Translations under genes and position numbers: made by a program
Shown: piece by piece, positions 5,722-46,578 of the stretch
How the letters are laid out: each line of letters begins with the position of its first letter
Position numbering within the stretch: the first letter of the stretch is position 1
From: a virus
Taxonomy: Duplodnaviria > Caudoviricetes
Direction: 5' to 3' (one strand)
DNA length: 52,535 nucleotides
IMG/VR virus record: IMGVR_UViG_3300044858_001628
Coordinates: 1 to 52,535 of that record
The notes under the pieces: generated by a model
Databases searched by the model: none
Seen by the model: only the letters and a program-made list of their open reading frames with translations
What the model was told of the DNA's origin: nothing

Positions 5722-6380
5722 TAGAAACTTCCATCTAGGCTATCGTAAGGCAGGTTGTTTAAGTCAAATTCGATGTTGTACGCTGGTCTAGCTTCGCCAA
5801 ACTCTCGCGCAAACAGTGTTAAAGCCTCAATGCTTGCATTTTTATCAAGCGTATCAGCGTCTTTCTTTAGGTAAGCTCTATGCTTAATCCAGTGAATTAG
5901 CGCCATGTGGTAACGAGATTTAATCTCTGGCTTATCTTGTAAGCCGACCATGTTGTTTAGCTGTGTACGTACTACGCGCAATCTGACTACGCCATCAATG
6001 CGAGGTGTAGGGTATAGGCGCAATTTATCAGTTTCAAAGTCTGTGATAACTGCCTTTGGTGTACCTGTTGAATTTCGCCAGCCTGATACATTCTCATTCA
6101 TCCAGCCAACCGTTGCGCCTGTAATGACTGAACCTTCTGCATCAACTACATCTTTAATCGCTAAAATTCGTTCATCAAGGCTGTATAGCGCTGTGTTTGC
6201 AACAATAGCAATCTCACAAACCTCAACTGTTGATGAATCAATGATTAGGCGAGAACGCCTGCAAGCTTGTTCTTGCGCTTCGTTTGCATAAGCAATTAGC
6301 TCTGAATCACTCCAAAGATAATCTGCCTCTGTATCGTCTAACTCAAGCCTTGCCTGCGTTAATATCTCGCCTAGATTCAT
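5721..6380 (-). CDS. Head-tail adaptor (DUF6682-like)
   Basis: AR.ELDD...LWSDSELIAYANEAQ and LRLYPTP...YH.AL..W..HRAY.K.DADT motifs; position after capsid. Confidence 0.7.
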   Translation of the reverse strand: MNLGEILTQARLELDDTEADYLWSDSELIAYANEAQEQACRRSRLIIDSSTVEVCEIAIVANTALYSLDERILAIKDVVDAEGSVITGATVGWMNENVSGWRNSTGTPKAVITDFETDKLRLYPTPRIDGVVRLRVVRTQLNNMVGLQDKPEIKSRYHMALIHWIKHRAYLKKDADTLDKNASIEALTLFAREFGEARPAYNIEFDLNNLPYDSLDGSF

Positions 6381-6640
6381 TACTCACCGCCTAATTGTGC
6401 CGCAAGTTGTGGGTCTGTTTCAGTTGTAGCAACAGCATTTGGAATAGCTGGTTCAGCAGGTTTAGCACCACCTTTACCGCCTTTACCACCGCCAGCAGGC
6501 TTACCACCAGCTAAAGCATTACCTTCACCATCAAGCAACTCACCGCTTGCATCAAAGTAATTACCATCTTGCTCAAAGCGTGCGATACCAAAAAAACCAC
6601 CGATGATGCCGAAGTCTTTTGACTTGTCTAATTTAGCCAT
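6380..6640 (-). CDS. Small virion-associated hypothetical protein
   Basis: Coupled start/stop with neighbours; ARFEQDGNYFDASG segment. Confidence 0.7.
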   Translation of the reverse strand: MAKLDKSKDFGIIGGFFGIARFEQDGNYFDASGELLDGEGNALAGGKPAGGGKGGKGGAKPAEPAIPNAVATTETDPQLAAQLGGE

Positions 6641-11834: not shown

Positions 11835-13481
11835 TTAAGAACCATCAACGTACTCAATAGGCTCGAATGAACCACCATCAATAATCATTGGTGCGACTAT
11901 TTCCATGTCATAGATACGGCTCACGCAATCAATGAAGTCATCTTTACTGCTGAATGGGAATGTTAAATACTCTTCTAACAGCCTTTTGTTGAGTGTGTAG
12001 GTATTGCCAGCTTCATCAACTCGCTTTACAGGCTGGTAAATACGATACAACTCGCCTTGCGCTCTCATTTTCAACTGTGCAGGGCTTTCTTCCTCTAGGA
12101 TTGCAGGCAACATGAACTTACCTTGCGAGAAGTCAGGATAAAGCCTCTGCACTCGGTCTGTCTTGGATTGCCCACCCTCTTTAGTCCAATTAACCTCTTT
12201 AATATCCCACACATCTTTAGCAATAAGCATCTTTTCTTGGAAGTGTTCAATGTCCGATTGCATACCGTACTTCTCATAGCCGACCTCTACGCGCTGAACA
12301 CCTGTCATGTTTAGCCATCTTTTGCGTAATCCACTCAATGCTGTCCAGCGCTCTGCAAGGTTCATCCTGTGACAATAACCATCTAACAGCCACTTGTTCA
12401 TGCGACTATCTACGCCAATTACTGCCATTGCCGTACGGTCACTGCCTTTCTTCTTGCTTGATGCAGGGTCACATATCACATAAACATTAAGAATTGAGGG
12501 TCTAATGTCCATAAACCTCAAGTGTTCTTTGCGGAACATGGCTTGACTACCTGCCAATGGGTTCTGTAACTGCTGACAAGCAATGTCACTCTCAACTTGC
12601 GTCTTGAGTTTGTGTTGCCAAATGTCGTTTGATAGATAAACTGGCGTGCCTGTTATCGTTGCATCGTCTGTCGCAGGGTAAATGCGCGGCTTTAATATCT
12701 TTTTCTCTAAGATATGCTGATAAGTGTCTGCGAAACTGTAGCGAGTACCAATATGCCAGCGCCTCATTACCTCTTTTCCACTCGGCAAACGTGTCACCGC
12801 ACCCAAGTTATCAGATAACGACCAAGCATCTGTGGTCTTTTTAATTTGCTCTGGTGTCGATACGCTCTCTGGTGTCACCACATCATCATAAATTCGTAAG
12901 CGAAAGTGTGCGCCTGTTGGCATACCATCGACTAAACCACTCGCGGCAAGTGTCGGCTCTTTCGGATTGCTCTTGCGTCTAACAACTAAGCCTGCTTCCT
13001 CACTCCACTTTGATGCGTCTTTGCGTGGATTCTCGTAAAGCACATCAGTATATAAGCGTTTAAGCTCGTAATTGTCCTCTAGCTCTTGCTTAATCTGTCG
13101 TAGGAATTTTAAAGCGTTGCCTTTGGTGTGACTGAATATGCAGATTGTCACATCTGGGTCTTTGATAATCTCTTGTATCGTGCCTGCATAAGTAATCACC
13201 GTTGATTTACCATGCTCACGCGCCCATAAGTCTAGGTTATCGTCTGGGTCTGCCTCGACCTCTCTGCATCGTTTATATATCCACTCATGCCACATATAAT
13301 CCGCATTAAGTAAGATACACAAAAGATAATAGCGGTCATTGCGACCTAACCATCTGCGACCTTCATCACCATAATCATGCTCAACTGCTTCCCACCATTC
13401 CACTAAATCATAAAAATTAGCCGCATGAATGTCTGCGCGTAATTCTTCGTTTAATGGTGGTCTAGGGTCAATTTGGGTCAA
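11835..13481 (-). CDS. terL: Terminase large subunit
   Basis: Walker A WAREHGKST, Walker B RIYDDVV, nuclease CDPASS...DRTA and FPFSSKDDFIDC. Confidence 0.93.
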   Translation of the reverse strand: MTQIDPRPPLNEELRADIHAANFYDLVEWWEAVEHDYGDEGRRWLGRNDRYYLLCILLNADYMWHEWIYKRCREVEADPDDNLDLWAREHGKSTVITYAGTIQEIIKDPDVTICIFSHTKGNALKFLRQIKQELEDNYELKRLYTDVLYENPRKDASKWSEEAGLVVRRKSNPKEPTLAASGLVDGMPTGAHFRLRIYDDVVTPESVSTPEQIKKTTDAWSLSDNLGAVTRLPSGKEVMRRWHIGTRYSFADTYQHILEKKILKPRIYPATDDATITGTPVYLSNDIWQHKLKTQVESDIACQQLQNPLAGSQAMFRKEHLRFMDIRPSILNVYVICDPASSKKKGSDRTAMAVIGVDSRMNKWLLDGYCHRMNLAERWTALSGLRKRWLNMTGVQRVEVGYEKYGMQSDIEHFQEKMLIAKDVWDIKEVNWTKEGGQSKTDRVQRLYPDFSQGKFMLPAILEEESPAQLKMRAQGELYRIYQPVKRVDEAGNTYTLNKRLLEEYLTFPFSSKDDFIDCVSRIYDMEIVAPMIIDGGSFEPIEYVDGS

Positions 13482-13521
13482 TTTTGATTAAATTCGGCTG
13501 ATTTTAACGCGATTAGAGCGA

Positions 13522-14061
13522 TTATTTTTGATTGACTAATACCGTAGCATTGCCAATTTGTCGCATTTCTGACGTTTTTTGCTTAACTTTTGATAATGCT
13601 GAAACGGTCATTGATACTTCCATCTGTTGAGGTGCGCCATCTTTTCCTGTGATTTCTTGCTTATCAGTAAACATTTTCTTGTATTTACCTAGCAATTCCA
13701 ATGCACCTTTTGCACCAGATGATTCAAAAACTCTTTGAGTAACCTCTGTCGGTAATGATGCACCTTCACTATCACGCAATAGAACTGTTTGAGTTACTGG
13801 AACTCTGCCCATGCACATATCGCGCAACTCTTCTAAGTCTGCGAGTATCTTTTCTACCGTGATTTCAGCCTTTGATGTGAGTTTATCCATGCGTAATTTG
13901 ATGGCATCAGCAATATTAGGTTTTCTTAAGTTTTCATGCCCGATTACTTCTGCTGTTTTCTTACTATATCCAGCCCTAATTGCGGCCTGTGTAGCGTTAA
14001 AGTCAATAACATACTCTTCAATGAATCTGCTTTGCTTTGCGGTGAGTTTAACTTCGGTCAT
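13522..14061 (-). CDS. terS: Terminase small subunit
   Basis: LTAKQSRFIEEY..DFNATQAAIRAGYS..TA..IGHENLRKP; ALELLGK; probable start MTEVK at 14061. Confidence 0.93.
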   Translation of the reverse strand: MTEVKLTAKQSRFIEEYVIDFNATQAAIRAGYSKKTAEVIGHENLRKPNIADAIKLRMDKLTSKAEITVEKILADLEELRDMCMGRVPVTQTVLLRDSEGASLPTEVTQRVFESSGAKGALELLGKYKKMFTDKQEITGKDGAPQQMEVSMTVSALSKVKQKTSEMRQIGNATVLVNQK

Positions 14062-14063
14062 GC

Positions 14064-14249
14064 TTATTCTTTCCAGCAATCAATAGCAACTGAATCTGCC
14101 GATGTAGCCAATGCACATTCGATACCTTGCTTTGGCGTTACTGTAACAACTGGTGTTGTTGTTGAGCTTAACAACTTCATTCCGTAGAGCATTGCGACCA
14201 CTATCGCAATTGTTGATATAAAGATTGCCACGACTTTAAATGTGTTCAC
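14064..14249 (-). CDS. Small membrane protein
   Basis: N-terminal hydrophobic helix; AGGGA SD; first gene after late-promoter copy 5. Confidence 0.65.
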   Translation of the reverse strand: MNTFKVVAIFISTIAIVVAMLYGMKLLSSTTTPVVTVTPKQGIECALATSADSVAIDCWKE

Positions 14250-14288
14250 TGTGTTTCCCTTGATTGATGGCTAAAAGCGTCAATACCA

Positions 14289-14314
14289 ATCCTATCCAAT
14301 TCCCATGCGTTGTA
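14289..14314 (-). promoter_or_regulatory. Late-promoter motif copy 5 (TACAACGCA-N11-TAGGAT) heading the packaging operon
   Basis: Motif 14306-14314, -10 box 14289-14294, intergenic. Confidence 0.72.
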
Positions 14315-14338
14315 ATTCTTTTAATTTATTTTATATTA

Positions 14339-14382
14339 TTTTGATTTAGGGTATTGCATTTATCAAAACATATCATTAGAAT
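14339..14382 (+). promoter_or_regulatory. Sigma70 promoter of the small-gene island with flanking inverted repeat
   Basis: TTGCAT (14354-14359)-N17-TAGAAT (14377-14382), AT-rich upstream tract; TTTTGAT (14339-14345)/ATCAAAA (14362-14368) inverted repeat brackets the -35. Confidence 0.75.
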
Positions 14383-14427
14383 GAAGTCTAGTAGTTCATT
14401 TATGTTAATTAGAAAGGTAGGTTGGAT

Positions 14428-14637
14428 ATGAAACTTGTTTATAAAGATTCTGGTGCTGTGGTTAATGTTGGCGATGTATGCCTTATTGATGGCGAGGGTT
14501 ATACGGTTGTTTTCTTTAGAGAACCACATAAACCATCATCAAGCGGAAAGGTGTCTGTTGCTGATGCGTCAGACTTCACACGCGAACTTTATGTAAGTGT
14601 TATTGGTGCAGAATGGATTGAAAGGGATGACAGATAA
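14428..14637 (+). CDS. Small hypothetical protein
   Basis: AAGGTAGG SD before ATG 14428; PHKPSSSGKV...YVSVIGAEW. Confidence 0.75.
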   Translation: MKLVYKDSGAVVNVGDVCLIDGEGYTVVFFREPHKPSSSGKVSVADASDFTRELYVSVIGAEWIERDDR

Positions 14638-14789
14638 TGTTTAACAATCTTAAAGTAGGTGACTTAGTTCTATGTAATGGCTATCAAGGCTCTGTTACGG
14701 CTCTATGCCAGTGGTCTGACAGCATGATTGAAGTGCGTTTAGGCTCTGGTCTTGTGTGTGTTGATTCTTTTGATGTTAAGAAAGTTTAA
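14637..14789 (+). CDS. Small SH3/KOW-like hypothetical protein (50 aa, MFNNLKVGDLVLCNGYQGSV...), below track cutoff
   Basis: TAATG coupling to previous gene, AGGGA SD. Confidence 0.75.
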   Translation: MFNNLKVGDLVLCNGYQGSVTALCQWSDSMIEVRLGSGLVCVDSFDVKKV

Positions 14790-14800
14790 GGGGAATTATT

Positions 14801-15085
14801 ATGGCTTACGCAATTATTTATACTACTTGTAATGAAGATACTGGCAGTTGTTCTAGTTGGCAGGATTCAACTACCTATGAAACTAAAGGCTTGGCTGAAT
14901 ATATAGCCAATCATGCCCACTATGAGTATTGGACTGAAGTAGTTGTAGCTGATAACTCTGTTTACATCAAAGAACAGGTTAAGGCTGAACGTATCGACCA
15001 ACGTGATGACTTTTACTATGGCTCACCTACACATCAAATGTTTGGCGATGCTTGGTTGTATGCTGATTGTGAAGGGGCATGGTAA
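14801..15085 (+). CDS. Small acidic hypothetical protein
   Basis: AAGGGG SD; D/E/Y-rich. Confidence 0.75.
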   Translation: MAYAIIYTTCNEDTGSCSSWQDSTTYETKGLAEYIANHAHYEYWTEVVVADNSVYIKEQVKAERIDQRDDFYYGSPTHQMFGDAWLYADCEGAW

Positions 15086-15423
15086 TGAAACTATCTAACG
15101 GTTTACCTAGTAAGTGGGCTATCTGCGAATGTTGTGGTGGCTCTGGTCATGTTGAGAACCCTGCTTTCTCTAACGGATTTACCTATGACGAGTTTAACGA
15201 AACTTTTGATGATGAAGAATCGCGTGAAGATTACTTTGCTGGTGCTTACGATGTTGCGTGTGATGCCTGCGAAAGCTCTGGCAAGGTGCAAGTAATAGAT
15301 GTTGCAAGCTGTACTTTTGCTCAAAAACGTGTAGCTGTTATGGCACGTAAAGAAGCAAGAGAAGAGGCTCAAGACGCACGTGAGAGTGCGGCTCTGTATC
15401 GCGCTGAAATGGGCTTTTTTTAA
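15079..15423 (+). CDS. DnaJ-type zinc-finger-like acidic protein
   Basis: CECCGGSG and CDACESSG repeats. Confidence 0.75.
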   Translation: MVMKLSNGLPSKWAICECCGGSGHVENPAFSNGFTYDEFNETFDDEESREDYFAGAYDVACDACESSGKVQVIDVASCTFAQKRVAVMARKEAREEAQDARESAALYRAEMGFF

Positions 15424-15433
15424 TTAACTACTA

Positions 15434-15829
15434 ATGGAGAATACAATGAAATACTTATCTAACTACGTTGAAGCTAAACAATCAGCGCTATTCGCTAAAA
15501 CTGGCACTTACTTTGCCTTTAGCCAAAAACAATATGATGAAGGCAAGAAAGAAGGCATTAACTATGTATCGCTTGGCGCTGGTATTATCTGCCCTAAAGA
15601 AAATTTTACAGAACTAACAGAAGGCTTGGAAACTATCCAGCAAGCTGGCATGGCTCAAGACTTAGCCGAGAATGGCAAAGATGCCATCATTCTGCGCGAA
15701 TTGCATAATCACGAATCTTTTTACTGTGGTGACATTGAAGATACTGTGTATGCGCTCGAAGATTACGGCATTACACGCACTGAAATTATCGCAGTGTATG
15801 ACCGTGTTGCACCAACTATTGATTACTAA
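15434..15829 (+). CDS. Acidic hypothetical phage protein (probable start 15446)
   Basis: YFAFSQKQYDEG and ILRELHNHE motifs; GGAG SD before MKYLS. Confidence 0.75.
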   Translation: MENTMKYLSNYVEAKQSALFAKTGTYFAFSQKQYDEGKKEGINYVSLGAGIICPKENFTELTEGLETIQQAGMAQDLAENGKDAIILRELHNHESFYCGDIEDTVYALEDYGITRTEIIAVYDRVAPTIDY

Positions 15830-15839
15830 GGGGAACAAA

Positions 15840-16178
15840 ATGCACATTATCAACGCATACAAAAAACTAACTCACAAGTATAACCCTGCTTGGTCTGAGC
15901 TTGATGATGATGAATACATGGGCTTTGACCTAAAGGTTGTTTATGGTAAGGCTCGTTACAGTGATGATGGCGAAAGTGTTAAAACAATCGCCTATGCCAC
16001 TACATCAAAACCAGTGACAGAAACGCAAATGTATCAAATGCTTCACGCCTTTGACCGTTCATGCAGATGTGAGCATGATTGCTGTGGACACTTTAACGGT
16101 GGCGCACGCACTCCAAAACAGCTAAGTCGCAATGGTCGCAAGTGGGCTATTACTCTTAGCTACTATGCTAACGTATAA
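15840..16178 (+). CDS. Hypothetical protein with CxCxHDCCG motif (112 aa)
   Basis: AAGGGG SD before ATG 15840; track start at 15672 overlaps the previous gene. Confidence 0.75.
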   Translation: MHIINAYKKLTHKYNPAWSELDDDEYMGFDLKVVYGKARYSDDGESVKTIAYATTSKPVTETQMYQMLHAFDRSCRCEHDCCGHFNGGARTPKQLSRNGRKWAITLSYYANV

Positions 16179-16236
16179 TGGTCTAAATTTTTAAAGAACA
16201 GCTGTTAAATCAAAAACTTACAAAGGAAATTATACC

Positions 16237-16569
16237 ATGAAAATGACAGTAAATGAAATGGAAAATGGCATTGCAAACAAGATTATTGATGATGCTTTAG
16301 CCTCTGGTTACACAGTGAGCGTGTACGATGGTGAAGAGTGGCCTGTTAAGCGTTCAAGTAACAAAGATGAAATCATCAGCGCTCTTAACTCTACTGGCAT
16401 TGACCAGCTTAAATTCCGCGATTCATCTGGTGAGTATGTTGGCGTATGTGCGCTTATCTGGGGCGAGTGTGGATATGACTTGGTAAACGACTACACAGTT
16501 AGCGATGCTATGGAAAAGCTCATGAAGGGCGCGAGTGACTTAGCCGACACTTATCAAGACGCGCTTTAG
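16237..16569 (+). CDS. Acidic hypothetical phage protein
   Basis: AAGGA SD; VSVYDGEEW motif. Confidence 0.75.
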   Translation: MKMTVNEMENGIANKIIDDALASGYTVSVYDGEEWPVKRSSNKDEIISALNSTGIDQLKFRDSSGEYVGVCALIWGECGYDLVNDYTVSDAMEKLMKGASDLADTYQDAL

Positions 16570-16638
16570 TGCAATTTAAGCCCATTCTAGCGAGTGGGTT
16601 TAGGTGGCAATAATGCCAGTAACGAAAAAGGAAATTGA

Positions 16639-17016
16639 ATGGATATTCGTGACCACTTCGCAGGGTTGGCAATGCAAGGGATATTAGTTAATGCTGGTCA
16701 AGATTATGTGCGAGAAGGTATCGCAATCATGGCTTATCAAATGGCAGACGCAATGATTGACGAGCGAAATCTTACATTAAACAAAGAAAGTCTTACCAAT
16801 AAGTTGATAGATAATAAATGCGGATTAACAATACGCACAGTAAATGTACTGCTTGCCGAAGGGATTACTAATTATTATAGGTTAATTAACACTTCTGCAA
16901 AAAAGTTAATTAGAGCGCCTAATTTTGGAAGGAAATCTTTAAATGAAGTCATTACACATCTTGAAGCTATTGGATTTACTCTTAAAGATGCAGATAATCC
17001 TTACGAACCAATCTAA
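16639..17016 (+). CDS. Fusion of RDHFAGLAMQG-type phage domain and RNA polymerase alpha-subunit CTD-like domain
   Basis: LTIRTVNVLLAEGI...LIRAPNFGRKSLNEV...L...GFTL aligns by eye with RpoA CTD LTVRSANCLKAEAI...LLKTPNLGKKSLTEI...L...GLSL. Confidence 0.85.
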   Translation: MDIRDHFAGLAMQGILVNAGQDYVREGIAIMAYQMADAMIDERNLTLNKESLTNKLIDNKCGLTIRTVNVLLAEGITNYYRLINTSAKKLIRAPNFGRKSLNEVITHLEAIGFTLKDADNPYEPI

Positions 17017-17018
17017 AC

Positions 17019-17513
17019 ATGGAATTTACAATGATAAATAAAGATGATGTTGCTAGTTTTTTAAGCTCGGCTACACTTGCAGGCAATGAAAAATCAATAA
17101 ATGCTTTTAAAGCTGAAATGCAATCATTCGTTGATGCGGCTGATGAAGCAATTAAGTCTATACATAAATTAAACGATGTGTATGCAGGGCGACTTACCCC
17201 AAACTACAAAAGGGCTGTGTATTGGGAGTTTAAAGAAGCGTGCTATCTATTAGCTGGCGTTATCCCTGATGAAAACGATGAATTAAAGCCAACTACAAAC
17301 AGGCATATTGTTACCGCTCAAGACTTGCATATTGACTACATGAACGCCCAAACAAAAGACATTAAAACGGTAACAAGAAACGATAAATACAAAGTTGGTG
17401 GCAAAGAAGTAAAGATAAGCATGACCTTTGTAAAAGCAAAAGACTTTGTTGCTTGGGCAAAGTTTACAGGCTACGAAATACCAGAAGCGATTGAAAGAGG
17501 GCTATTAAAGTGA
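17019..17513 (+). CDS. Hypothetical protein
   Basis: W..KEACYLLAG..P and FVAWAK..GYEIP motifs. Confidence 0.65.
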   Translation: MEFTMINKDDVASFLSSATLAGNEKSINAFKAEMQSFVDAADEAIKSIHKLNDVYAGRLTPNYKRAVYWEFKEACYLLAGVIPDENDELKPTTNRHIVTAQDLHIDYMNAQTKDIKTVTRNDKYKVGGKEVKISMTFVKAKDFVAWAKFTGYEIPEAIERGLLK

Positions 17514-17683
17514 GTGACGTTAAAGAAAATCGTGGTGGCTCTCGCGCTGGCTCTGGTCGCCCTAAAGTGGCTGAACCTGTAAAACATCGTACAGTGCGCC
17601 TAAGTGATGCGGATTGGATGAAGTTTAAATCGCTTGGTGGCGCTCACTGGTTGCGCTCTGTACTAAATGCTACTGGCCAGTAG
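17510..17683 (+). CDS. Small DNA-binding protein (57 aa; AT-hook-like RGGSRAGSGRP plus RHH-like TVRLSDADW...LGGAHWLR), below track cutoff
   Basis: GTGA overlap with previous stop, GAGGG SD; last gene of the plus-strand island. Confidence 0.75.
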   Translation: MSDVKENRGGSRAGSGRPKVAEPVKHRTVRLSDADWMKFKSLGGAHWLRSVLNATGQ

Positions 17684-18104
17684 TGCGCCTATCTTCCTTA
17701 TGCTCAAGAATCTTGAATAGTTTTTCTATTTGAGATTCTATCTTTTCAACTGTGCGTGTGAATTGCTCTGCATTTTTTTCTGTGACAATCGTAAGTGAAG
17801 CTTTGGTTGCGTAAAATTCAGCTACGTGAGTTTTGTAGTTTGCAAAATCGAGCTTCACTTGCATTAACTCTTCTGCCTGCTTCGAGCTACCCTTTGTTTT
17901 CTCATTGATAAGCTTAAACTCACTGTCCATGCTGGCTTTAATTGAATCAAAGCGTTCATCTAGCCTTTTTTCGTATTGATATGCGGCTATCTTTAATAGT
18001 AGCCAGCCTCCACCAATCATCGACCCACCAAAAGCTAAAAGTTCACCAAGTTCAACCTGCATATCAAGTCCAATTATTTTATTTATCTTTTTTGTGAAAT
18101 TCAA
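17670..18104 (-). CDS. Membrane-anchored coiled-coil protein downstream of lysis cassette
   Basis: N-terminal hydrophobic helix then heptad-like region; start probably at MQVEL. Confidence 0.65.
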   Translation of the reverse strand: MNFTKKINKIIGLDMQVELGELLAFGGSMIGGGWLLLKIAAYQYEKRLDERFDSIKASMDSEFKLINEKTKGSSKQAEELMQVKLDFANYKTHVAEFYATKASLTIVTEKNAEQFTRTVEKIESQIEKLFKILEHKEDRRTTGQ

Positions 18105-18540
18105 TGAGCGCTAAAAGTTGCGTTCTACAATCTTTATACTGCTCAAAATTGGCAACTGCGTTCTTTAGTGTTTCTCTGTCCGTAAAAGTATCGGCTCTGG
18201 CGGTGTCTTGAGAAGTTCCTGTGGCGGCTGTGGGCAAACCAGTGAGCGCGTTATCCCACAACCTGCCAGCATCAGAACTAAGGCACAAAGTATTAGTCGT
18301 TGCATTATCAATTCCCCTGTTAATCTCACGGTAAACAATTTTTGTCTTGGCTTGCTCTTCTTGTACGCGCTTAACTAATGCACGCGCCAAAAGCTCATAA
18401 TTCTCTTTATCCTCTAGCGCCTGCTCTGCCTGCTCTTTTAAGTCTGCATCGTAGCGCCAGCCGTTTACCTTCCAGCCTGCGCCAAATGAGGCAAACATAA
18501 TGAGTAATGCCACTGCTAATTTAATCTGTGCTGGTGTCAT
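18079..18540 (-). CDS. Rz-like inner-membrane spanin
   Basis: N-terminal TM helix, GWKVNGWR, coiled coil; after endolysin and holin; contains embedded lipoprotein gene. Confidence 0.8.
   Translation of the reverse strand: MTPAQIKLAVALLIMFASFGAGWKVNGWRYDADLKEQAEQALEDKENYELLARALVKRVQEEQAKTKIVYREINRGIDNATTNTLCLSSDAGRLWDNALTGLPTAATGTSQDTARADTFTDRETLKNAVANFEQYKDCRTQLLALIEFHKKDK
18165..18305 (-). CDS. Rz1-like outer-membrane spanin embedded in the +1 frame of Rz (46 aa)
   Basis: MQRLILCALVLMLAGC lipobox then Pro-rich CPQPPQELLKTPPEP; GGGGA SD. Confidence 0.8.
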   Translation of the reverse strand: MQRLILCALVLMLAGCGITRSLVCPQPPQELLKTPPEPILLRTEKH

Positions 18541-18721
18541 TGGATTTTCTACCTGCAAATTTATCTGCTGAATGACCTGCTACTAGAGCAATCACGTTGA
18601 AATTTAGAATTGAAGCAAAGTCTGGGCTGGTAAGTTTGCCGAACCACAACAAAACTGCTGAACCTACTGATAGTCCAACGGCAAATAAAAAGCGCCTACC
18701 GCCTAGCGTGTTGAAGTTCAT
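18521..18721 (-). CDS. Putative holin (two TM helices)
   Basis: 66 aa, two hydrophobic segments, between endolysin and spanin. Confidence 0.65.
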   Translation of the reverse strand: MNFNTLGGRRFLFAVGLSVGSAVLLWFGKLTSPDFASILNFNVIALVAGHSADKFAGRKSNDTSTD

Positions 18722-19266
18722 AGCAATGCACTCTCAACTGGCATCATCCCACCCTTAAACCATGTAGCTACATCAAAATTAGGGCAATCTTTTATAAACT
18801 CATTGCGCGTAATCTGTCCATCACCGTTTAAATCTGGCGAGCAGTCACGATGACCTTTGATATTTACTTTAATATCTTTAAGCGTATTGGCGGTTGATTC
18901 TGCCGTGAGAATAGTACGACCTGATATTGCTGATGTTAAGTTGATAACGCATTGACGTAATGATAGCCACTGCGCTTGTGTGAATTTGTCAGTTCCAACC
19001 ATGCAAATGCCGACTGATTTAGAGTTATTCCCCTGCACATGAGCGCCACTCTCATCCAATCCGCGACCAGTTTCAACTGTGCCATCAATGTTAATTACAA
19101 AATGATAGCCAATGTGCTTTAGCATCGGGTTAAAGTTTCGTACTGGCTGGCTGTCGCGCTTAAATCCACGCGCCTTGTGCATCAAGTCTAAGTCGTATGC
19201 TTTAAAGTTCTTACCATTAGGCGTTGCCGCGCAATGGATTATGATGTGGGTTATTGTACGTTTCAT
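18718..19266 (-). CDS. Endolysin, N-acetylmuramoyl-L-alanine amidase (T7-lysozyme/Amidase_2 type)
   Basis: IIHCAAT, IGYHFVI, GAHVQG.N..S.GIC, GHRD.SPDLNGDG and K.CP.FDV Zn-ligand motifs. Confidence 0.93.
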   Translation of the reverse strand: MKRTITHIIIHCAATPNGKNFKAYDLDLMHKARGFKRDSQPVRNFNPMLKHIGYHFVINIDGTVETGRGLDESGAHVQGNNSKSVGICMVGTDKFTQAQWLSLRQCVINLTSAISGRTILTAESTANTLKDIKVNIKGHRDCSPDLNGDGQITRNEFIKDCPNFDVATWFKGGMMPVESALL

Positions 19267-24451: not shown

Positions 24452-24649
24452 TTAATTAGCCTGATTACTGCAATGAGTAACGTGAAGAGCGTCAACCATT
24501 CTTCCACCTCGCTCAATGCCCATATCTTTTTGCTTACCAGTAAAAAGGTCGGATATAACCGCTTGAGATACCCCGATAGTTTCACCGAGTTTTTTTTGAG
24601 TAAAGCCGCTTGCAAGCAAGTCGCGGATTTTTTCATTTATGTTTTTCAT
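24452..24649 (-). CDS. cro: Cro-like HTH repressor (65 aa, probably leaderless)
   Basis: FTQKKLGETIGVSQAVISDL HTH; divergent from cI; ATG 7 nt after the PR -10 box. Confidence 0.85.
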   Translation of the reverse strand: MKNINEKIRDLLASGFTQKKLGETIGVSQAVISDLFTGKQKDMGIERGGRMVDALHVTHCSNQAN

Positions 24650-24656
24650 AAGCGTA

Positions 24657-24716
24657 AGCATAGGGGTAACTATGTATGTTGTCAATAGGCAAAACTATCT
24701 ATTTGATAGGTATAGT
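24657..24716. promoter_or_regulatory. OR region: PR (minus, TTGACA-N17-TATGCT), PRM -10 TATAGT and two operators
   Basis: -35 at 24680-24685, -10 at 24657-24662; operators ATAGGGGTAACTAT 24660-24673 and ATAGGCAAAACTAT 24685-24698; PRM -10 at 24711-24716. Confidence 0.8.
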
Positions 24717-24722
24717 TCGCAC

Positions 24723-25421
24723 ATGAGTACATTTGGCGAAAGATTGCGCGAGGCGAGAAAAGACAAAGGGCTTTCACAAGGCAACTTGGCTAAAATCGTT
24801 GGCGTAAAGCAACCAACAATTGCAGAGCTTGAGGCAGAAGGTAAGGGTAGCAGTAAAGCTTCTTTAATCGCCAAAGCGCTAAATGTTAGTCCACTGTGGC
24901 TATCAGAAGGCAGGGGTGATAAGCATGATAACAACATCATTGCCGACATTGAATCGTCAGCCGCGCAAGCAATGGGCGAAATTGCATCACCATCAAACAT
25001 CATTAAAATCCCATTGCTAAACATTACCGCAAGCGTGGGTTACGGTAGCGAAAATACCGAAGAAGTACCAATTGCATATATAACTATAAATGCTGATTGG
25101 GCGAAGGTTGCGCTAAGACCGTTAAGCGATACATCTAACTTAGCTTTCATTCACGCAGTTGGTGATTCGATGTTTCCGACATTTACCGATGGCGACATTT
25201 TACTTGTGGACACTTGGAACAAATCAGTCACGGCAGATAAAATTTATGTGATTGAAGCTCACGATAGATTGTTTATAAAAAGAGTGCGCCAACGTCTTGA
25301 TGGTGCATTTGAAGTGAGTAGCGATAATCCAGCCGTGAAAACTGTTGATGTACTTAATGGCGATAGCGAAGTTAGAGTAAAAGGTCATGTCATCTGGGTA
25401 TGGAACGGTAAGAAAATATAA
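24723..25421 (+). CDS. cI: CI-like repressor (HTH plus S24 autoproteolytic domain), leaderless start
   Basis: MSTFGERLREARK..GLSQ..LAK..GVKQPTIAELE; GDSMFP and FIKR S24 motifs. Confidence 0.93.
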   Translation: MSTFGERLREARKDKGLSQGNLAKIVGVKQPTIAELEAEGKGSSKASLIAKALNVSPLWLSEGRGDKHDNNIIADIESSAAQAMGEIASPSNIIKIPLLNITASVGYGSENTEEVPIAYITINADWAKVALRPLSDTSNLAFIHAVGDSMFPTFTDGDILLVDTWNKSVTADKIYVIEAHDRLFIKRVRQRLDGAFEVSSDNPAVKTVDVLNGDSEVRVKGHVIWVWNGKKI

Positions 25422-25499: not shown

Positions 25500-25541
25500 A
25501 CAGGATTTCCTATTGCATTTATAAATAGGATAGCCTATTAT
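25500..25541 (+). promoter_or_regulatory. OL region: PL promoter with two operators
   Basis: TTGCAT (25513-25518)-N17-TATTAT (25536-25541); ACAGGATTTCCTAT 25500-25513 and ATAGGATAGCCTAT 25525-25538. Confidence 0.8.
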
Positions 25542-29631: not shown

Positions 29632-30690
29632 TTACCATAATTTTGATGATAAATCTGAACCGCGAAGGTTTGAATATCTCAAAGCCATTTTTAAACTTTT
29701 CCAGCCAAGTATTTTAGCTATTTGTAAGTCTGTTAATGTTGTGCGTTCATAAAACCTGCTTGTTGCCTCATGGCGCAAGCAATGAAATGTGAAACCTTCA
29801 CATTTAGCATGGTCAAATATGCGTGAGAATGTCTGCGATAGCCTTGAGCTTATATCATTGCGATTACCTTTAAATGAAAATAAGCGCTCGGTATTGATTG
29901 ATTTTGCATAAACCTTGAGCTTGTCTAATATGGTGGAAGTCATAGGAACTTGCCTTTTATCACCATTTTTAGTTTTATCTAAAAAGATAGTGCGAGATTC
30001 AAAGTCTATCTGTGATTTTTCAAGTGTGTAGATTTCAGACAATCGCATACCTGTTTCAAGTGCAATATCAAACAGCGCTAATATCTCGTAAGGATTATCA
30101 AACTCAAATCCACGCTCTTTATTATCAACCTTGCCGCCTAAAATAATTCGCCTTACCTCTTTCTCTTCTGATTCAGTTAGTCGCCTATCACGCTCAACCT
30201 CTTCTTTATGACCACTGGCATAGCGCTTTGGTAGCTCTCTTAATGGATTACTTACCAATAAAGCGTCACCTCTACGCTTCACCCAATCCAAACAACGCGC
30301 CAGAGCGCCTACATGGTGACGTATAGTTGATGGCGACAGGTTGTTATGCTTCATATCAACAACATAATTGTCTGCAAACTCGTAATTCAATGATGCAATT
30401 TTCTTAACGCCAACACGCCTTCTAGCAATGCCTAATAGCTTATGGTCACTATCAGGAACATCAACGCCTAGCAGGTATTGGTCTATTGCGTCAGCAATTG
30501 TAAGAATTGCACCCTTTTTAGCCAAATATTCGGTAGGAACTTTTCCAACCTTGAGTAAAGATTCAAGCTTTGCAGTGTACTCGTCACCTTCTGCTTCATC
30601 GTCAAAGGTCAAGTAAACCCTACCGTTAGGTAGTGATTTGCTTGATACTGTGTAGTAATACTTACCGTTACGAACTCTTTTGTTTGCCAT
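29632..30690 (-). CDS. int: Tyrosine recombinase (integrase)
   Basis: TGMRLSE (R), KTKNG (K), FHCLRHEA (HxxR), LGW, RY catalytic set. Confidence 0.95.
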   Translation of the reverse strand: MANKRVRNGKYYYTVSSKSLPNGRVYLTFDDEAEGDEYTAKLESLLKVGKVPTEYLAKKGAILTIADAIDQYLLGVDVPDSDHKLLGIARRRVGVKKIASLNYEFADNYVVDMKHNNLSPSTIRHHVGALARCLDWVKRRGDALLVSNPLRELPKRYASGHKEEVERDRRLTESEEKEVRRIILGGKVDNKERGFEFDNPYEILALFDIALETGMRLSEIYTLEKSQIDFESRTIFLDKTKNGDKRQVPMTSTILDKLKVYAKSINTERLFSFKGNRNDISSRLSQTFSRIFDHAKCEGFTFHCLRHEATSRFYERTTLTDLQIAKILGWKSLKMALRYSNLRGSDLSSKLW

Positions 30691-31045: not shown

Positions 31046-34000
31046 TTAAACTGCTTTCCCTTCTTTGATTGAGGTTACATTGTCATTCAAGCGTTTCATT
31101 ATTTGAGTGATTCTTTCGTCAATAACTTTTACAGCCTCACGATTGTCACCACCAGCTTCTTTAATTGCACGTTGCTGTTTGCGTAAGTTTTGAACTTGGC
31201 GCAAGGCTAAGTCTGAAACTCTGGCTAATCTTGCCTCTGGGTGAGATTCCATGAATTTAGCAATATCACCACCTTCTTTAGCGATACCTTTCATTTCATT
31301 TTGATACTCATTCATAATGCGTACATTCGTGTAAAAAGCGTCACCTTGTGAAGCTTGCCCTGTTACATCACCATAAAAGCGACCTACCAGTGGAACTTTA
31401 TAAGTCGGCAACTCTTCACCAGTAAACAAACTATCTGCTGTTGTGCCTGCCTTGATAATCTCACGACCTACGCCACCAGTGAACTGTCCAGCTAAATACT
31501 CTAACTGGTCTGCTGTAGGGCTAATAGCACCTTGCTTGTAGTCATTACCGCCTGTCATGTAGTTTATCGCTTGTGCAATAGCCACGCTTAAATCCCATGC
31601 CTTGTCGCGTGAGCGAGTGAAGCCTGCTGTCGGGTTAAGTGAGTTAAAGTCCTCGCGTGCAATTGGTCTGCCAGTGAAGTCTTTATTTTCAGCAAGTGCC
31701 GCCAGTGGGTCAATAACAGTTGGCGTGATTGTTTGAATTGATAATCCAGCGTTACCTATTGGGTTTGTTACGTTCAGTATCATATCCATGATATGCACTA
31801 ATCGTTTTTGAGTATCTTCACCGCCAGATAAAGCCCATTCAGTCACAATTCGACCAAGTGAAGGAATCGCATTGAAACCTAATGGCATTGGCACTGTAAT
31901 GTAACTATCGCCTAGTGGAATAACTAAGCTACGGTCACGCACAAACTCTGGTGGCTCGTCATCACCATATCCAGCCGCAGAAAGTAACAGCGCTTGCATT
32001 GCACCTAACAGCAAGCCACCTTGCACGATACGCTTGCCCATTGCGCTTAGTTTAACCTTGCCGTTAGCATCTTTCTCTAACATCGTTTCACCGATACGCG
32101 CAGTGCCTTGAACAGAAGCGTTAAAGAAGGCATATAGTGAACCAATCTGTCTGCCCATTTCACCCTTACGGTTGAAGTTTACAGAGATATTTTTAGCCAT
32201 TGATGCCGCTTGTTGCTTGCTGTGTCCATTATCTAGTGCAACCTTATACACTGATAAGCGAACTGCGTTTTCAAGCGCTGTGTTGTAGTCAGAAAGCCAA
32301 TCAAAAATAGGCTTGATTGCTTTGTCGTACATCCACTGCTCTGGTTTTGCTAACAGTCCATTTGCACTGATTAACTTACCAATCTTGCTGTTTTGCCACC
32401 ACAATGGGTCTAGTGCATTTTGTAGTGATTCGCCACGCTCTTTCGCATTTGCGTACATATCACGGAATCCAGTTTGACCACCTTCGTTTTGGTAATCTTC
32501 AAACAGTTGTGACCACTGGCTATTACCAGCTACGCCATTTTTACGCTCACTGCGTAAGTCTTTATAAATTCCAAGTAATGCGCTAGGTGTATTTTTCAAT
32601 ACATCAGACTTCTTGTTGGCAATTGGCGTTGTGCTTAGGTTTAATAGTGCGCCTTGAACGTCACGCACGATATTGACTACACCAAAGATAGGGTTATATT
32701 GAGTGTTGATAGAAGCAAAGTAGCGTGTAAAGCTAGAAGCCGCGCCTAATAACTCGCCAATTTGGTCTTGGTCTAAGTTCTTAACACTTGCCGCCATACG
32801 CATGGAGCGTTCATCGTACTTATTAAATACAACCGCACGTTCTACGATGTCACCTTTTTCAGTTTTAAATCTGGCAACAACAACATTGTCAAGGTTTTTG
32901 TAGTTTGGGTCTGTTACTTCTTGCACGCTGTCTGGTTTTTTTACGGTATTAATGGTGTAGCCATTCTTCCCTTCAAACTGAATTAGCTTATTGGCTTCTG
33001 CGAGATTGGTAAACTCTTGAACCTTAGAACCGTGATACAAGACTTCATAAACAGTAGCGCCTTTTACCACCGTTTTAATTTTAGGTGGGCTATCAACTTT
33101 CCAAAACTCTTTATTAGGGTTTAGTTTAGCCAATCCAATAAGCGCTTTAGACACGCGATTTTTCTCACCACGAATCACATTCTTTTCAAACTGTTGCGCC
33201 ATGTTAGCGATAATATCAACCACTGCACGATTTGAACCTGTTGCGCGTTTGCTTGCATTACCTTTAACACTAAATCCTTGACCAGTGCCGTTGCCAAAAC
33301 CATTGTCCATATCTTCACGCATCAATGGAACGTAGTTTTTGTATGCGCCCTGCCATGCTTCAATAGTCTTTTCTGATTCTAGGCCATAATCAATAAGCGT
33401 TTGGCGTGATTTGCGATTGATAGCATCAATACGTTTAGCCAGCTCTGTGTAATTAGCTTTCTGCTCTGCTGTGAGGTTTGATAAGTAGTCGCGTGCATCT
33501 TGCGTGTCCATACCAGAGCCGCCATCAGGCATATCAGGATTAACTTTAGCAATTTGGATATTACGCTCTTCTGCATGACGCGCCCATAGATATTCTTCAA
33601 AGTCAGCCATTGCTACGCCACGCGCACGCATATCTTCAATGAGTGGGTCTAAGTCGTGTTTAATAAAGTCTTGAGTACGTTTAGCCGTTCTGCCGTGATA
33701 AAGCTCTTCTTGCAGGTAAGCATTGAATTGGTCTGCAATATCCGCGCCAGCTTTCTTGATTGAATCAGTAACACGCTTCAAGTCAATGTGCTTATCTTGT
33801 AATGCGTAAATCACACTATCAAGTTTGCTTGGCTCTGGATTGTTCCATGATGAATTGCTACGGCTAAAACGAATATCATTGTTATTAGCATCAAAGTTAC
33901 CGTTGTTACCTGTAGCTGATTTGATTTGTGTAGGTGAGAAAACAGCGTAAGATATTTCTGGCGTTTTACTCGCTGATGATGCGTAGTTCTTCTCTAATAA

Positions 34001-37000
34001 CTTAACACCATCATATCCTTGCGACTTTAAATAAGACACAAATCTTTCATCATCTAAAAATTGCCATAGATTTATTCTACTTGTATCAGCTATTTCTTCT
34101 TTTGAATAACCTGCTTTCTTTAAGTCACTTACTACAGATTTACTCTTTAGAGTTAAGTCATAAGGATTATTTATGCTCAAATACGTTGCATAAACGTAAT
34201 CATTCATTGATGACTTTCCACTATCATCTGCTTTGGCTCTTCCAAACTCTCTAGCTAGTTGCTTGTTTGGAGTAAAGAAAAAAGCTTGTGATGTAACTTC
34301 TTTTTCCGCACCTAAAAAACCTAATGACCTTTTACCAACTTTTGGCTCAAATGTATTAAATTTATCCTTCGTTTCATACCTAGCTTCATCCCTATTGTAT
34401 GTATATTTGAAGGCAGTACCATGATAAACAACCAAAGGCTTACCATCGGCATCAACTACTTTGCTGTCACCGAACCAAGATTTGAATTGAGGTGTTTCTG
34501 TTTGCGCTTGATTAGCGCGTGAGTAGAATATCTCGTTAAGTTGAGTATTTTCTAAAGATTGATATGCGAGCTTGCCAACGAGTTCCAGTAGGCGTTGCCG
34601 CTTCTCTCCGCTTTTTTCGCGTAAGAAGGTATGTGCGATAACTGCTCTTTTAAGCGTTGTGCTACCTGCGTGAGTGGCTCTTGCTTCCCGTGATTCTGCA
34701 AGAACTCTAAACTCTTTGTCGGTGTAAGGTTTTCCACTTGATAGCTCGATAAACTGTTGTTTATCAAAATCATAGACTAAATCATCCAGTTTAGCAACGC
34801 CTAAAGCATTTGGTGACTTGTAGGTAACTTCATATCCGTTACGTTTTTCTGTCACGTAAATACCATTGCGAATAGCTTTATAAGAAGCTTTTAACAATTC
34901 AGCGATGTTATTCTCTGTGTCACCTTTAATCCAGTTAATACCAAGCTCGCGCTCTTGGTCTTGATGTGGTGCAATATGGTCTGTTGTGCCAAATTTAAGC
35001 GCCATCGAAACCATGTTTTCAAGCCTACGAAGTTTTCCAGTTGATGTGATTCCATCCCTATCTCCTGCAAATACCTTACCGTTATTGTAAGCCCAATTCG
35101 CAACAGCAGAGTAAACGCCAGAGCCTCCGTAGCCTTCATCCCATGCGGCAACATTTATCTCTACATTTCCGTCAGGATAAACGCTGATTGTCCCTTCTTG
35201 ATTAAGAAGAGCTTTTCCTTTTGTATCTCTTGGGTAAATAGCATACTGCTCTTCAACACCATCTTTTGCGATTGCAACATCAACTCTAACAAGTTGAGGA
35301 ACTACGTCATCGAATACTTTTTGCATATCGGTAGCTGATGATTTCGTGTACTTGAACATATCATCATTGAGTGTAAGCTCTTTGAATAACTGCGCGTCAT
35401 TTACAGAATAGTCGCGTGATAATTTAACACCGCCACCACCGCCACCACCGCCACCATTAACAACGAACCTACGAGCAGGCAATAAGTAATTAACGATAAT
35501 GTCATTATCAGAAAACTCAAGATTTACACCGATTGAGCGTAAGAAGTTACGAATAGCCGCAATAGCGCGTTTAACAAAGCCTGCGCTTGGTGCTGTTTGA
35601 GCCATTTCAGCCAATACTTCTTCTGCAACAATACGTCTATCGCTAACTTTATTTAAGTCTAAGCCATACTGTTTAGCCTTTTTAGCCATATCGTTTTTAC
35701 GCAACATTGCTACTTGGTCTAATATCGCGCCTAACTCTTTACCATACAATCCACGCAATCCGTAGTGACCTAATGTTTCATGGAACACAACGCGAATAAC
35801 GTCTTTTGGCGAGTTCATTTCGCTGGCTAATATGTAAACCTTACCATCATCGTAAAAGCCTTCTGGATGACCTTTAGCGCCTTGCGATAACTGTCTTTGA
35901 TTCTCGTCACGCACAGCTTTACGAATTGCAGGGTCGTTCATATCGTCAACAACAATAATCTCTGGTGCATTTTTCCATCCAGAGCGTAATTTGTTTACAG
36001 CAATTTGTACTGAAACTTTAGGCAAGCCTTTGTTTTCAGATTTTGAACGGCTAAATGTTGGGGTGTCTGTACTTTTTTCTACGCTTGCAGAGCCAGATTT
36101 TTCACCAGAATAATAACGCTTTGCAATATCTCTCGCATAATCAACTGCGCTTTCAGTAGCAGAAAGATTTGTAAATCTATACACCAAGTCTATTAACGCT
36201 TTAACTTTTAATGGGTCTGAAATGCCATTGCTTTGTGCGTAAGATTCATTTCTTCTCTTTGACAAGTCGCCTATTAAAGCAACAAGCGCTTTAGATTTGA
36301 ATAATTTAGGATGAATTTTCGTATCAACAGAAAATTTAACCTCGCCAGAATATCTATCAATATAGATTAAAATTGCTTTTTTTGAATCTGTCATTACATT
36401 GCCATATCTAAGCTCTTCACCAAGCTCTTCTGATACAGCGCTGTTTATTTTTAACATACCATCAATTTGCGTAACTCTGTCTTTGTAAAATTCGTAATCG
36501 GTAGATTCGTATTTTTTATTATTAAAATACTTCATTAAGCTTAACAAGTATTCAGAAGCGGCATCTTTGCTTCTGAATGAAAATCCAGACTTAACGCCAG
36601 CATCAAGTTTGTACTTCTCTGGCATTAAAATTCCGCTTTCAATCATTGGATTTTCTGGCGTATGACCGTCAAGCGTAAATTTGATAATGTCGCCTTCTGG
36701 GTGGTGCGTTCTAAACCTTACCAAGTTTCCAGTGATGATGTAGCGATTTTCCTTGCCACCATTTACGCTACGCAATCTAAACATATCTTCTAGGTAGAAG
36801 TATGTGTTTGCCTGATTTGGAACTGATATTCCAGAGCCACTTTCTATTTTTGAAAGAGGTATTGAGATTCTACCGTTAGGCACATTGCGCTGAATGTGAA
36901 CAATAATGTTTGAAGGTGAAAATGGATTCCCTGCTTTTGAGGTTGATTTGCCAATAGAATATCCAACAACAACACCTTCCGATTCAATGTCATTCACGAT

Positions 37001-46546: not shown

Positions 46547-46578
46547 TTGCACAATTCCAAAGGTTTAGACGTTTCATA

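Follow-up and report, generated by a model that had tools for sequence, protein, structure and literature searches.

New anti-defence genes are discovered chiefly by way of anti-CRISPR-associated (Aca) regulators, and to our knowledge every Aca family known until 2026 was of the helix-turn-helix type. Here we analyse a cassette of ten small genes, o1 to o10 (positions 14428–17683, + strand), in the viral record IMGVR_UViG_3300044858_001628, a linear stretch of 52.5 kb with an estimated completeness of 73%, hereafter the window (W). The last gene of the cassette, o10, encodes a protein of 57 residues that resembles ribbon-helix-helix (RHH) proteins. Like acr-aca operons, the cassette has an inverted repeat at its promoter that is conserved together with a small, putatively DNA-binding gene at the 3' end, and it has small, variable cargo genes that turn over between elements while the regulator is kept. 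Unlike them, it carries in W no known Acr and no other recognisable anti-defence cargo, its regulator is RHH-like rather than helix-turn-helix, it runs to ten genes, and it lies beside terS, the gene for the small terminase subunit.

One Aca of the RHH type, the 66-residue Aca14 of anti-defence operons in Pasteurella multocida, binds an AT-rich inverted repeat at its promoter and represses it, as an electrophoretic mobility shift assay and a reporter assay showed (Feussner et al., NAR 2026, PMC13551039). As described there, the Aca14 repeat lies over the -10 and the protein has a long helical extension, whereas the cassette repeat flanks the -35. The model of o10 has only two short helices and a Gly/Arg arm, which sets it apart from Aca14 as described. 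The arms of the cassette repeat do not overlap the -10.

A second comparison is the immI region of phage P22 (Arc, Mnt, Ant), in which Arc, an RHH protein of 53 residues, autoregulates a strong promoter in the late region of a temperate phage; there the repressor gene comes first and the operator lies between -35 and -10. The cassette resembles immI in its small RHH-like putative repressor, in that o10 counts Arc among its closest structural matches, and in a weak lead to an antirepressor fold for o9 (template modelling, TM, score below 0.5); it differs in that the regulator gene stands last rather than first and the half-sites flank the -35. In conjugative plasmids, anti-defence genes (ArdC and others) lie in the leading region, the part transferred first to the recipient (Samuel et al. 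2024, cited by bioRxiv 10.1101/2024.10.15.618418). Cassettes related to ours share ArdC-type domains with these regions; the difference is that W is a phage with double-stranded entry, for which first entry is suggested solely by the position next to terS.

We read the locus, with a probability of roughly 0.55, as a self-contained accessory cassette that is repressed by its own product, o10, and carries counter-defence or host-takeover genes. The feature itself holds up: an acr/aca-like, putatively autoregulated cassette with an RHH-like regulator and a conserved operator-promoter, whose role in anti-defence is plausible but unproven. The ten co-oriented open reading frames (ORFs) encode 50–164 residues and are joined by overlaps of 1–4 nt or gaps of 2–11 nt, the exceptions being 58 nt before o7 and 69 nt before o8. 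Isoelectric points (pI) fall below 5 in six of the ten and below 7 in eight, the basic products being o6 (8.3) and o10 (11.0), and GC skew is positive over 14–18 kb, with a sign switch across the cassette. Family matches identify o5, o6, o7 and o8 as real genes; these matches, the codon-based gene calls and the skew switch rule out chance ORFs. The preliminary description of small, tightly coupled and mostly acidic ORFs, running between lysis and terminase genes on the opposite strand, is borne out by the ORF calls, junctions and pI values and, for the position, by gene annotation.

The putative operator (14339–14368, + strand) consists of 7-bp arms, TTTTGAT (14339–14345) and ATCAAAA (14362–14368), which stand 16 nt apart and embrace the -35 hexamer TTGCAT (14354–14359, +). 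The -10 hexamer TAGAAT (14377–14382, +) follows 17 nt after the -35 and is aligned with hexamers of the TATTAT/CATAAT type in the other cassettes. If transcription is assumed to start 7 nt after TAGAAT, the arms fall at about -48 to -44 and -27 to -23, on both sides of the -35. Upstream of the operator, an AT-rich, TAATTTATT-like stretch (14316–14338, +) is a possible UP element, and W, L004 and L005 have a similar, AATTTATT-type stretch at matching positions (promoter alignment A6; L-numbers denote other viral loci with members of the o10 family). The preliminary description had placed a 7-bp inverted repeat around the -35, where it is indeed present, and had seen no CI-type ATAG-N6-CTAT operator at this promoter, which a window-wide count confirms: the three such sites (24660, 24685 and 25525) all lie near the CI-like gene. 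It went too far in calling the promoter near-consensus, for TTGCAT-17-TAGAAT matches the consensus at 8 of 12 positions and is absent from the hits of a consensus promoter scan, which counted 15 promoter-like sites in this region against 13.8 expected, no excess. Without other phages for comparison, the repeat does not exceed chance: a 251-nt AT-rich stretch holds 18 inverted-repeat pairs of at least 6 nt, and TTTGA-N18-TCAAA, found once in the window, is expected 0.22 times and turned up in 21 of 100 shuffles. What significance the repeat has comes from its conservation in other phages and has no other basis.

To place the cassette among its relatives, 48 viral loci with family members were collected, and their genes were called by a codon-usage script. 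It is in the subfamily closest to o10 that the architecture of W recurs. Runs of 9, 4, 2 and 7 small, mostly acidic ORFs in L003, L004, L005 and L021, respectively, each end in an o10 homologue and are divergent from the terS operon. The related phages L011, L019 and L022 have three to four cargo genes (50–236 residues), then the homologue and one more gene, and L002 has a four-gene operon that ends in the homologue directly upstream of terS. In eight lineages (W, L002, L003, L004, L005, L021, L071 and the L011 group), no more than about 2.5 kb separates the cassette from terS or terL. The cargo of L002 (3106–4880) comprises a PAPS-reductase/DUF3440 protein and then a ParB_N-domain protein, after which comes the o10 homologue.

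The promoters of these operons share a layout (A6): TTGAT, 8–9 nt, a -35 (TTGCAT, TTGACA or TTGCAA), 3–4 nt, TCAA(A/T) and a -10-like hexamer. The arms, the -35 and the distances are conserved, whereas the sequence between arms and hexamers is not. Stated as a pattern, TTGA-N8-10-TTG[AC][AC][AT]-N3-4-TCAA has 8 matches in 484,015 bases, both strands included, against 0.7 ± 0.8 in 20 Markov shuffles. Five of the eight lie upstream of operons that end in an o10 homologue (W, L002, L004, L005 and L021); the other three (L041, L043 and L044) have the same sequence at the same offset inside a gene, and apparently represent one phage. A relaxed motif adds L011, and L019 and L022 show the same layout by eye with TTAGAT arms; the two arms of L022 have co-varied to TTAGAT/ATCTAA. 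In L002, 2.3 kb separate the homologue from the motif, which stands upstream of it where the homologue's own operon begins. In the reverse direction, the promoter pattern picked at least 113 stretches of viral contigs (1.05 Mb), mostly by chance, as a pattern with 15 fixed bases leads one to expect; a hidden Markov model (HMM) of o10, run over the listed stretches, found two homologues, both downstream of the promoter and on its strand. One of these, L137, carries the same genes as L021, and the other, L071, is new.

The cargo behaves differently. When 62 cargo proteins from 12 loci were compared (BLASTP, E ≤ 1e-3), cross-locus matches were limited to two exceptions, namely five pairs within the L011/L019/L022 group and o8 with one protein of L029, the two having a single domain in common. 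Judged by such sequence comparison, the cargo is unrelated between lineages while the regulator and the promoter-operator are conserved. The acr/aca-like architecture that the preliminary description had proposed gains support from this recurrence, in other phages, of the same promoter-operator and an o10 homologue around unrelated cargo, and the neighbourhood analysis of homologues that it had suggested finds runs of small ORFs ending in a homologue to recur beside terS. Its functional proposal, an immediate-early, self-repressing island for anti-defence or host takeover, is an inference.

The regulator gene itself, o10 (17510–17683, +; 57 residues, GTG start, pI 11), overlaps the stop of o9 and encodes a Gly/Arg-rich N-terminal arm followed by an RHH-like core. 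An exhaustive phmmer search gave 199 cluster representatives at E ≤ 1e-3, mostly of 50–70 residues, whose consensus is a Gly/Arg arm (GGxRxGAGRP or MPRPKPPEP) and then RTIRLTDxxWxKFKxLGGxKWLR. No family model in Pfam, PHROG or NCBIfam covers o10, in agreement with the earlier remark that this terminal gene is unannotated; ten representatives that we looked up are all metagenomic, and the four cluster members with any name are each a 'hypothetical protein'. The AlphaFold2 model of o10 (mean predicted local distance difference test, pLDDT, 84) has helices at residues 33–42 and 45–55, preceded by an extended, conserved RTVRLSD segment. Compared with 48,161 PDB chains, it finds 24 with Z ≥ 2, the best at 2.8, and these are mostly RHH proteins: NikR, Arc (Z 2.7), CdbA, VapB, ParG, NikA, AmrZ, DinJ and SvtR. 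Scores no higher than 2.8 are as expected, because only some 36 residues are aligned. Of 50 family members searched against Pfam at E ≤ 0.1, three match BrnA, one MobC_2 and one the NikA-like family, all weakly. A prediction of two o10 copies with alignment A1 scored 0.33 against a mark of 0.42 and was counted neither for nor against a dimer. The preliminary description had called the gene AT-hook/RHH-like; the structure matches (Z ≤ 2.8) favour the RHH likeness. The family thus appears, on profile and model evidence, to be a previously unnamed family of RHH-like regulators.

Three independent lines argue that the o10 module binds DNA as a regulator. The homologue in L071 (o10-HMM E 2.8e-16) scores 31.3 bits with the Pfam NikA-like RHH family, for which the cut-off is 27 bits. 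In L015, the homologue forms the N-terminus of a UmuD/S24 peptidase protein (5935–6603; phrog_811 5.6e-42). This fusion, like LexA and CI, would join a DNA-binding domain to a UmuD/S24-type peptidase, and it looks like a LexA-like, self-cleaving regulator built on an o10-type DNA-binding module; just upstream of its gene stands an inverted repeat with perfect 10-bp arms, TTTTGAAATA-N7-TATTTCAAAA, and the same TTGA/TCAA core. Finally, in L031 and the L036–L049 group the homologue is the first gene of a rightward operon at a divergent switch, with Sak, exonuclease and SSB genes leading leftward and replication genes rightward, a layout that puts it in the position of Cro. A gene for a UmuC-like polymerase follows the L015 fusion gene.

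By their occurrence, these proteins appear to be confined to uncultured phages. A tblastn search of o10 and two homologues against 50,697 GenBank phage records gave no match, nor did a scan of viral contigs with o10 as a single protein. Of two scans of genome contigs for the family, the first found none and the second a single locus, L163, in a metagenome-assembled genome (MAG). A word-index search returned only 2 near-identical relatives for o10 and likewise 2 for o9. In the L163 locus, a second small protein (985–1164) carries a GRGGWRGGGRPK arm on a different C-terminal part, and the Gly/Arg arm may be a separable module.

Among the cargo, o8 (16639–17016, +; 125 residues) combines an N-terminal, phrog_2201-like phage domain with a homologue of the C-terminal domain of the RNA polymerase alpha subunit (alpha-CTD). 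It matches PF03118 (2.2e-10), the C-terminal parts only of NCBIfam rpoA models, and 49 alpha-subunit sequences in the PDB (best 3e-6), with residues 61–124 aligned to the alpha-CTD. The alignment with the solved alpha-CTD keeps the R, N and G-x-K-S positions, which we take to be the UP-element DNA contacts R265, N268, G296, K298 and S299 in E. coli numbering. The N-terminal 45 residues match C-terminal parts of phrog_2201, a family that occurs twice just upstream of the homologue in L029. By competing for UP elements or activators, an alpha-CTD that is not part of the polymerase could take over host transcription, and o8 may be such a transcription decoy; a literature search by listing found no phage-encoded alpha-CTD homologues. 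Counter-defence is touched more directly in related cassettes. The first gene of L071 encodes a full ArdC-type protein, with ArdcN and MPTase-PolyVal zincin domains, and the first genes of L011 and L019 encode ArdcN together with a weak DnaJ-domain match below the Pfam cut-off. As annotated, these ArdC-type domains are the only direct link to counter-defence.

We picture the cassette as working in the following way. Once naked phage DNA has entered the cell, host RNA polymerase would start at the sigma70-type cassette promoter, and the nine small cargo genes would be expressed in a burst and then at a low maintenance level. The last product, o10, would be a dimeric RHH-type DNA-binding protein with a Gly/Arg-rich N-terminal arm; as it accumulated, it would occupy the TTGAT and ATCAA half-sites and so switch off the promoter from which it is made. 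These half-sites, centred near -36 and 21–22 bp apart, would lie on the same face of the DNA, with o10 occluding the -35. The hairpin past o10 would stop transcription before it ran antisense into the lysis genes. Such a scheme follows the logic established by experiment for Aca proteins, Aca14 among them (PMC13551039). Since the promoter lacks a CI-type operator, the prophage repressor would not silence it. The alpha-CTD copy in o8 would probably interfere with host transcription, and the cargo as a whole most likely consists of counter-defence or host-takeover proteins. With the cassette beside terS and its promoter facing the packaging genes, it would be among the last DNA to be packaged and the first to be ejected. 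DNA packaged last is ejected first (the last-in-first-out rule), and the adjacency to terS in eight lineages suggests that the cassette lies on this end.

Several observations weigh against this account. Half-sites 21–22 bp apart are more widely spaced than the adjacent sites typical of Arc, MetJ and CopG. L003 and L163 have o10 homologues and no clean copy of the motif, and the flanks of the motif are also somewhat similar between loci (A6); another protein could read the repeat, or the promoter module could simply share ancestry. All structural matches of o10 stay below Z 3, a Foldseek search of the model against the PDB gave nothing at E ≤ 0.001, and o10 itself has no significant Pfam RHH match; its family profile, run against PDB sequences, returned chance-level rows only (E ≥ 0.35). 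Family members are also encoded in the position of Cro, within operons and as the last genes of replication operons, and the family so looks like a general-purpose regulator whose presence is not specific for anti-defence. As for the cargo, o1 to o9 match no known Acr, anti-restriction or defence family in Pfam, NCBIfam or PADLOC, no dedicated anti-defence library having been searched, and o5, o7 and o9 have no anti-defence match among PDB sequences. The only family matches of the cargo in Pfam and NCBIfam are DUF7659 (o5) and the alpha-CTD (o8, also in the PDB), and the earlier remark that none of the proteins is a named Acr agrees with the Pfam, NCBIfam and PDB-sequence searches. Three metatranscriptome runs of one sample give contigs over the cassette, terS and the lysis genes alike, with DNA carry-over possible; such contigs, which carry neither strand, level nor timing, are uninformative on when the cassette is expressed.

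A different function for the same anatomy would be that of a moron for lysogenic conversion, expressed from the prophage independently of CI to alter host physiology or exclude other phages, with o10 setting the level. W is a temperate phage with an integrase and a CI-like repressor, and a site between lysis and packaging genes, opposite in orientation and with its own promoter and terminator (both signals predicted only), is the textbook layout, for which lambda bor, between Rz and cos, is a precedent; moreover, the cassette promoter has no CI-type operator, and the cassettes of the L011 group and L163 adjoin CI-like repressor genes. We nevertheless consider conversion an unlikely purpose, as no cargo protein matches a PADLOC defence model, the cargo looks by eye small, acidic and soluble rather than destined for the envelope, the L003 cassette has the gene of a family A DNA polymerase as its neighbour while the 8.1-kb stretch of that locus contains none for lysogeny, and the ArdC-type cargo of related cassettes points to counter-defence. 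Conversion and counter-defence are compatible readings, and in a lysogen, too, a promoter under autorepression would keep expression low.

The remaining doubts concern what o10 and the repeat do. That the inverted repeat is not an o10 site at all, being either an inherited promoter module or a site read by some factor of the host or of the phage other than o10, which would act elsewhere or in another role, strikes us as quite improbable. Such a view would account for a repeat that is within chance in the window alone and for the extra similarity of the promoter flanks, which suggests common ancestry; the TTGAT/ATCAA half-sites also equal what we take to be the FNR half-site consensus, and host readers of the CRP/FNR type are conceivable. 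FNR sites, however, are spaced by N4, against N16–N18 between the cassette arms. The view also sits poorly with arms, -35 and distances that are kept while the intervening sequence varies, with L022 arms that changed together and preserved their symmetry, and with a motif that co-occurs with o10 homologues far above chance. Least of all do we expect o10 to serve packaging or the late operon, either as regulator of a divergent promoter on the terS side or as a pac/cos accessory protein, with the small genes as passengers. The adjacency of terS or terL in eight lineages would suit this role, as would the homologues of L002 and L027 directly upstream of terS on the same strand, and the repeat arms, read on the - strand, match the hexamer positions of a promoter-like TTGATA-17-CAAAAT (14366 to 14338). 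Many family members, however, lie far from terS (in the Cro position, at the ends of replication operons, in the UmuD fusion), the motif is in every case centred on the cassette's own -35, and in L002 it marks the beginning of the homologue's operon rather than lying at terS.

Turning to the remaining genes of the cassette, all on the + strand, o1 (14428–14637; 69 residues, pI 4.7) and o3 (14801–15085; 94 residues, pI 4.3) belong to no family, nor does o2 (14637–14789; 50 residues, pI 4.8), which has a weak SH3-like match below cut-off. Two CxxC pairs occur in o4 (15085–15423; 112 residues, pI 4.4), with a weak match to DnaJ CXXCXGXG (16.7 bits) below cut-off. DUF7659 is represented by o5 (15434–15829; 131 residues, pI 4.5; PF24692 E 1.4e-30, phrog_37583), which has no PDB relative by sequence; a literature search by that name found no mention of DUF7659. 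The product of o6 (15840–16178; 112 residues, pI 8.3) has a Cys/His-rich C-terminus and matches phrog_20892 (E 5.9e-9), and that of o7 (16237–16569; 110 residues, pI 4.1) belongs to a phage-only family (phrog_5680 1.4e-18, phrog_22565 7e-17), its Atlas neighbours all being unnamed viral clusters. No family was found for o9 (17019–17513; 164 residues), for which the Atlas gives a weak structural lead to Bro-N/AntA/KilAC folds (TM 0.33–0.44); its AlphaFold2 model, made from 3 sequences, is unusable (pLDDT 42), and the antirepressor fold stays a lead.

Two hairpins punctuate the + strand. A hairpin in the gap between o7 and o8 (16574–16605; 14-bp stem, -26.5 kcal/mol, z -3.2) may serve as an attenuator or a site of processing, for which one sample gives a weak hint only: its RNA-library contigs stop at 16546–16575 while the DNA contig continues. 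With these ends, the hairpin and the AT-richer o8 and o9 (GC 35–37%, more AT-rich than o1–o7) in mind, we suggest that the cassette may consist of two joined modules. A terminator-like hairpin (17707–17739) lies 23 nt past the stop codon of o10, where it overlaps the 3' end of the convergent 144-residue gene, and has 14 pairs followed by a T-rich tail (-23.1 kcal/mol, z -4.05). The 5' untranslated region of the cassette has no stable fold (z +0.75), and an Rfam scan of 13400–18800 at E ≤ 0.1 found no RNA family.

Variation between strains is seen in one lake sample, represented by three RNA libraries and one DNA library, which diverges from the window at 14404–15649, mainly in o2–o5. Its contigs have 25 substitutions and 13 gaps over 14404–14795 and 40 over 15031–15649, run into unlike sequence at 14632–14635 and 14795, and are identical to the window from 15620 to 18840. 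Contigs of the RNA libraries carry a joint from 15089 to 15500, which would remove o4. From these contigs, the promoter-proximal cargo appears to be a hot spot at the strain level.

The gene order of the window is that of a temperate lambdoid phage. An integrase gene lies at 29632–30690; a CI-like repressor gene with RecT/RecE-like genes is on the + strand, and an O-like replication gene, NinB and a resolvase-like gene are on the - strand. The - strand also encodes, in order, an amidase and an Rz-like spanin and then terS, terL, portal, head and tail genes, with the amidase, spanin and other genes at 17670–19266 and terS at 13522–14079. The cassette is bordered by a 61-residue - strand gene starting at 14249 and a 144-residue - strand gene ending at 17670. 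Public runs that contain the stretch are lake or freshwater metagenomes. The cassette DNA has no near-identity match among the 50,697 GenBank phage records; DNA searches for close and remote relatives among GenBank phages turned up only a stretch of 62 nt inside o7 that matches Pseudomonas phages; tblastn with terL against the same records found none at E ≤ 1e-20. By these searches, the phage is far from cultured ones.

Three features outside the cassette deserve mention. The ATAG-N6-CTAT sites (24660–24698 and 25525–25538) flank the CI-like gene, and two are inside the 5' end of the longest CI-like ORF (24639–25421), so the true start is probably further downstream. A 57-residue ORF (18165–18338, -) with a lipobox-like LAGC lies out of frame inside the Rz-like gene (18079–18558), as would be expected of an Rz1-type o-spanin. 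Between the integrase and the tail and virion genes, a single ORF of 5168 residues (31046–46552, -) is exceptionally long for the size of the phage.

As described, o10 would be a second RHH-type family after Aca14, apparently distinct from it and equipped with a recognisable DNA motif. If binding and repression are true, searching for the pair of regulator and operator would supply a ready set of proteins to examine as possible counter-defence or host-takeover factors of phages from freshwater and other environments. The conserved placement beside terS would amount to a testable rule for where such genes are located. It is possible, if rather doubtful, that o10 and its operator form a portable 'expression shell' that several uncultured phage lineages use for fast-evolving counter-defence and host-takeover genes on the end of the DNA that enters first, as a phage counterpart of the plasmid leading region; if so, the o10 family with its TTGAT-[-35]-TCAA motif would be a new anchor for guilt by association, leading to dozens of unknown anti-defence proteins, among them an alpha-CTD decoy.

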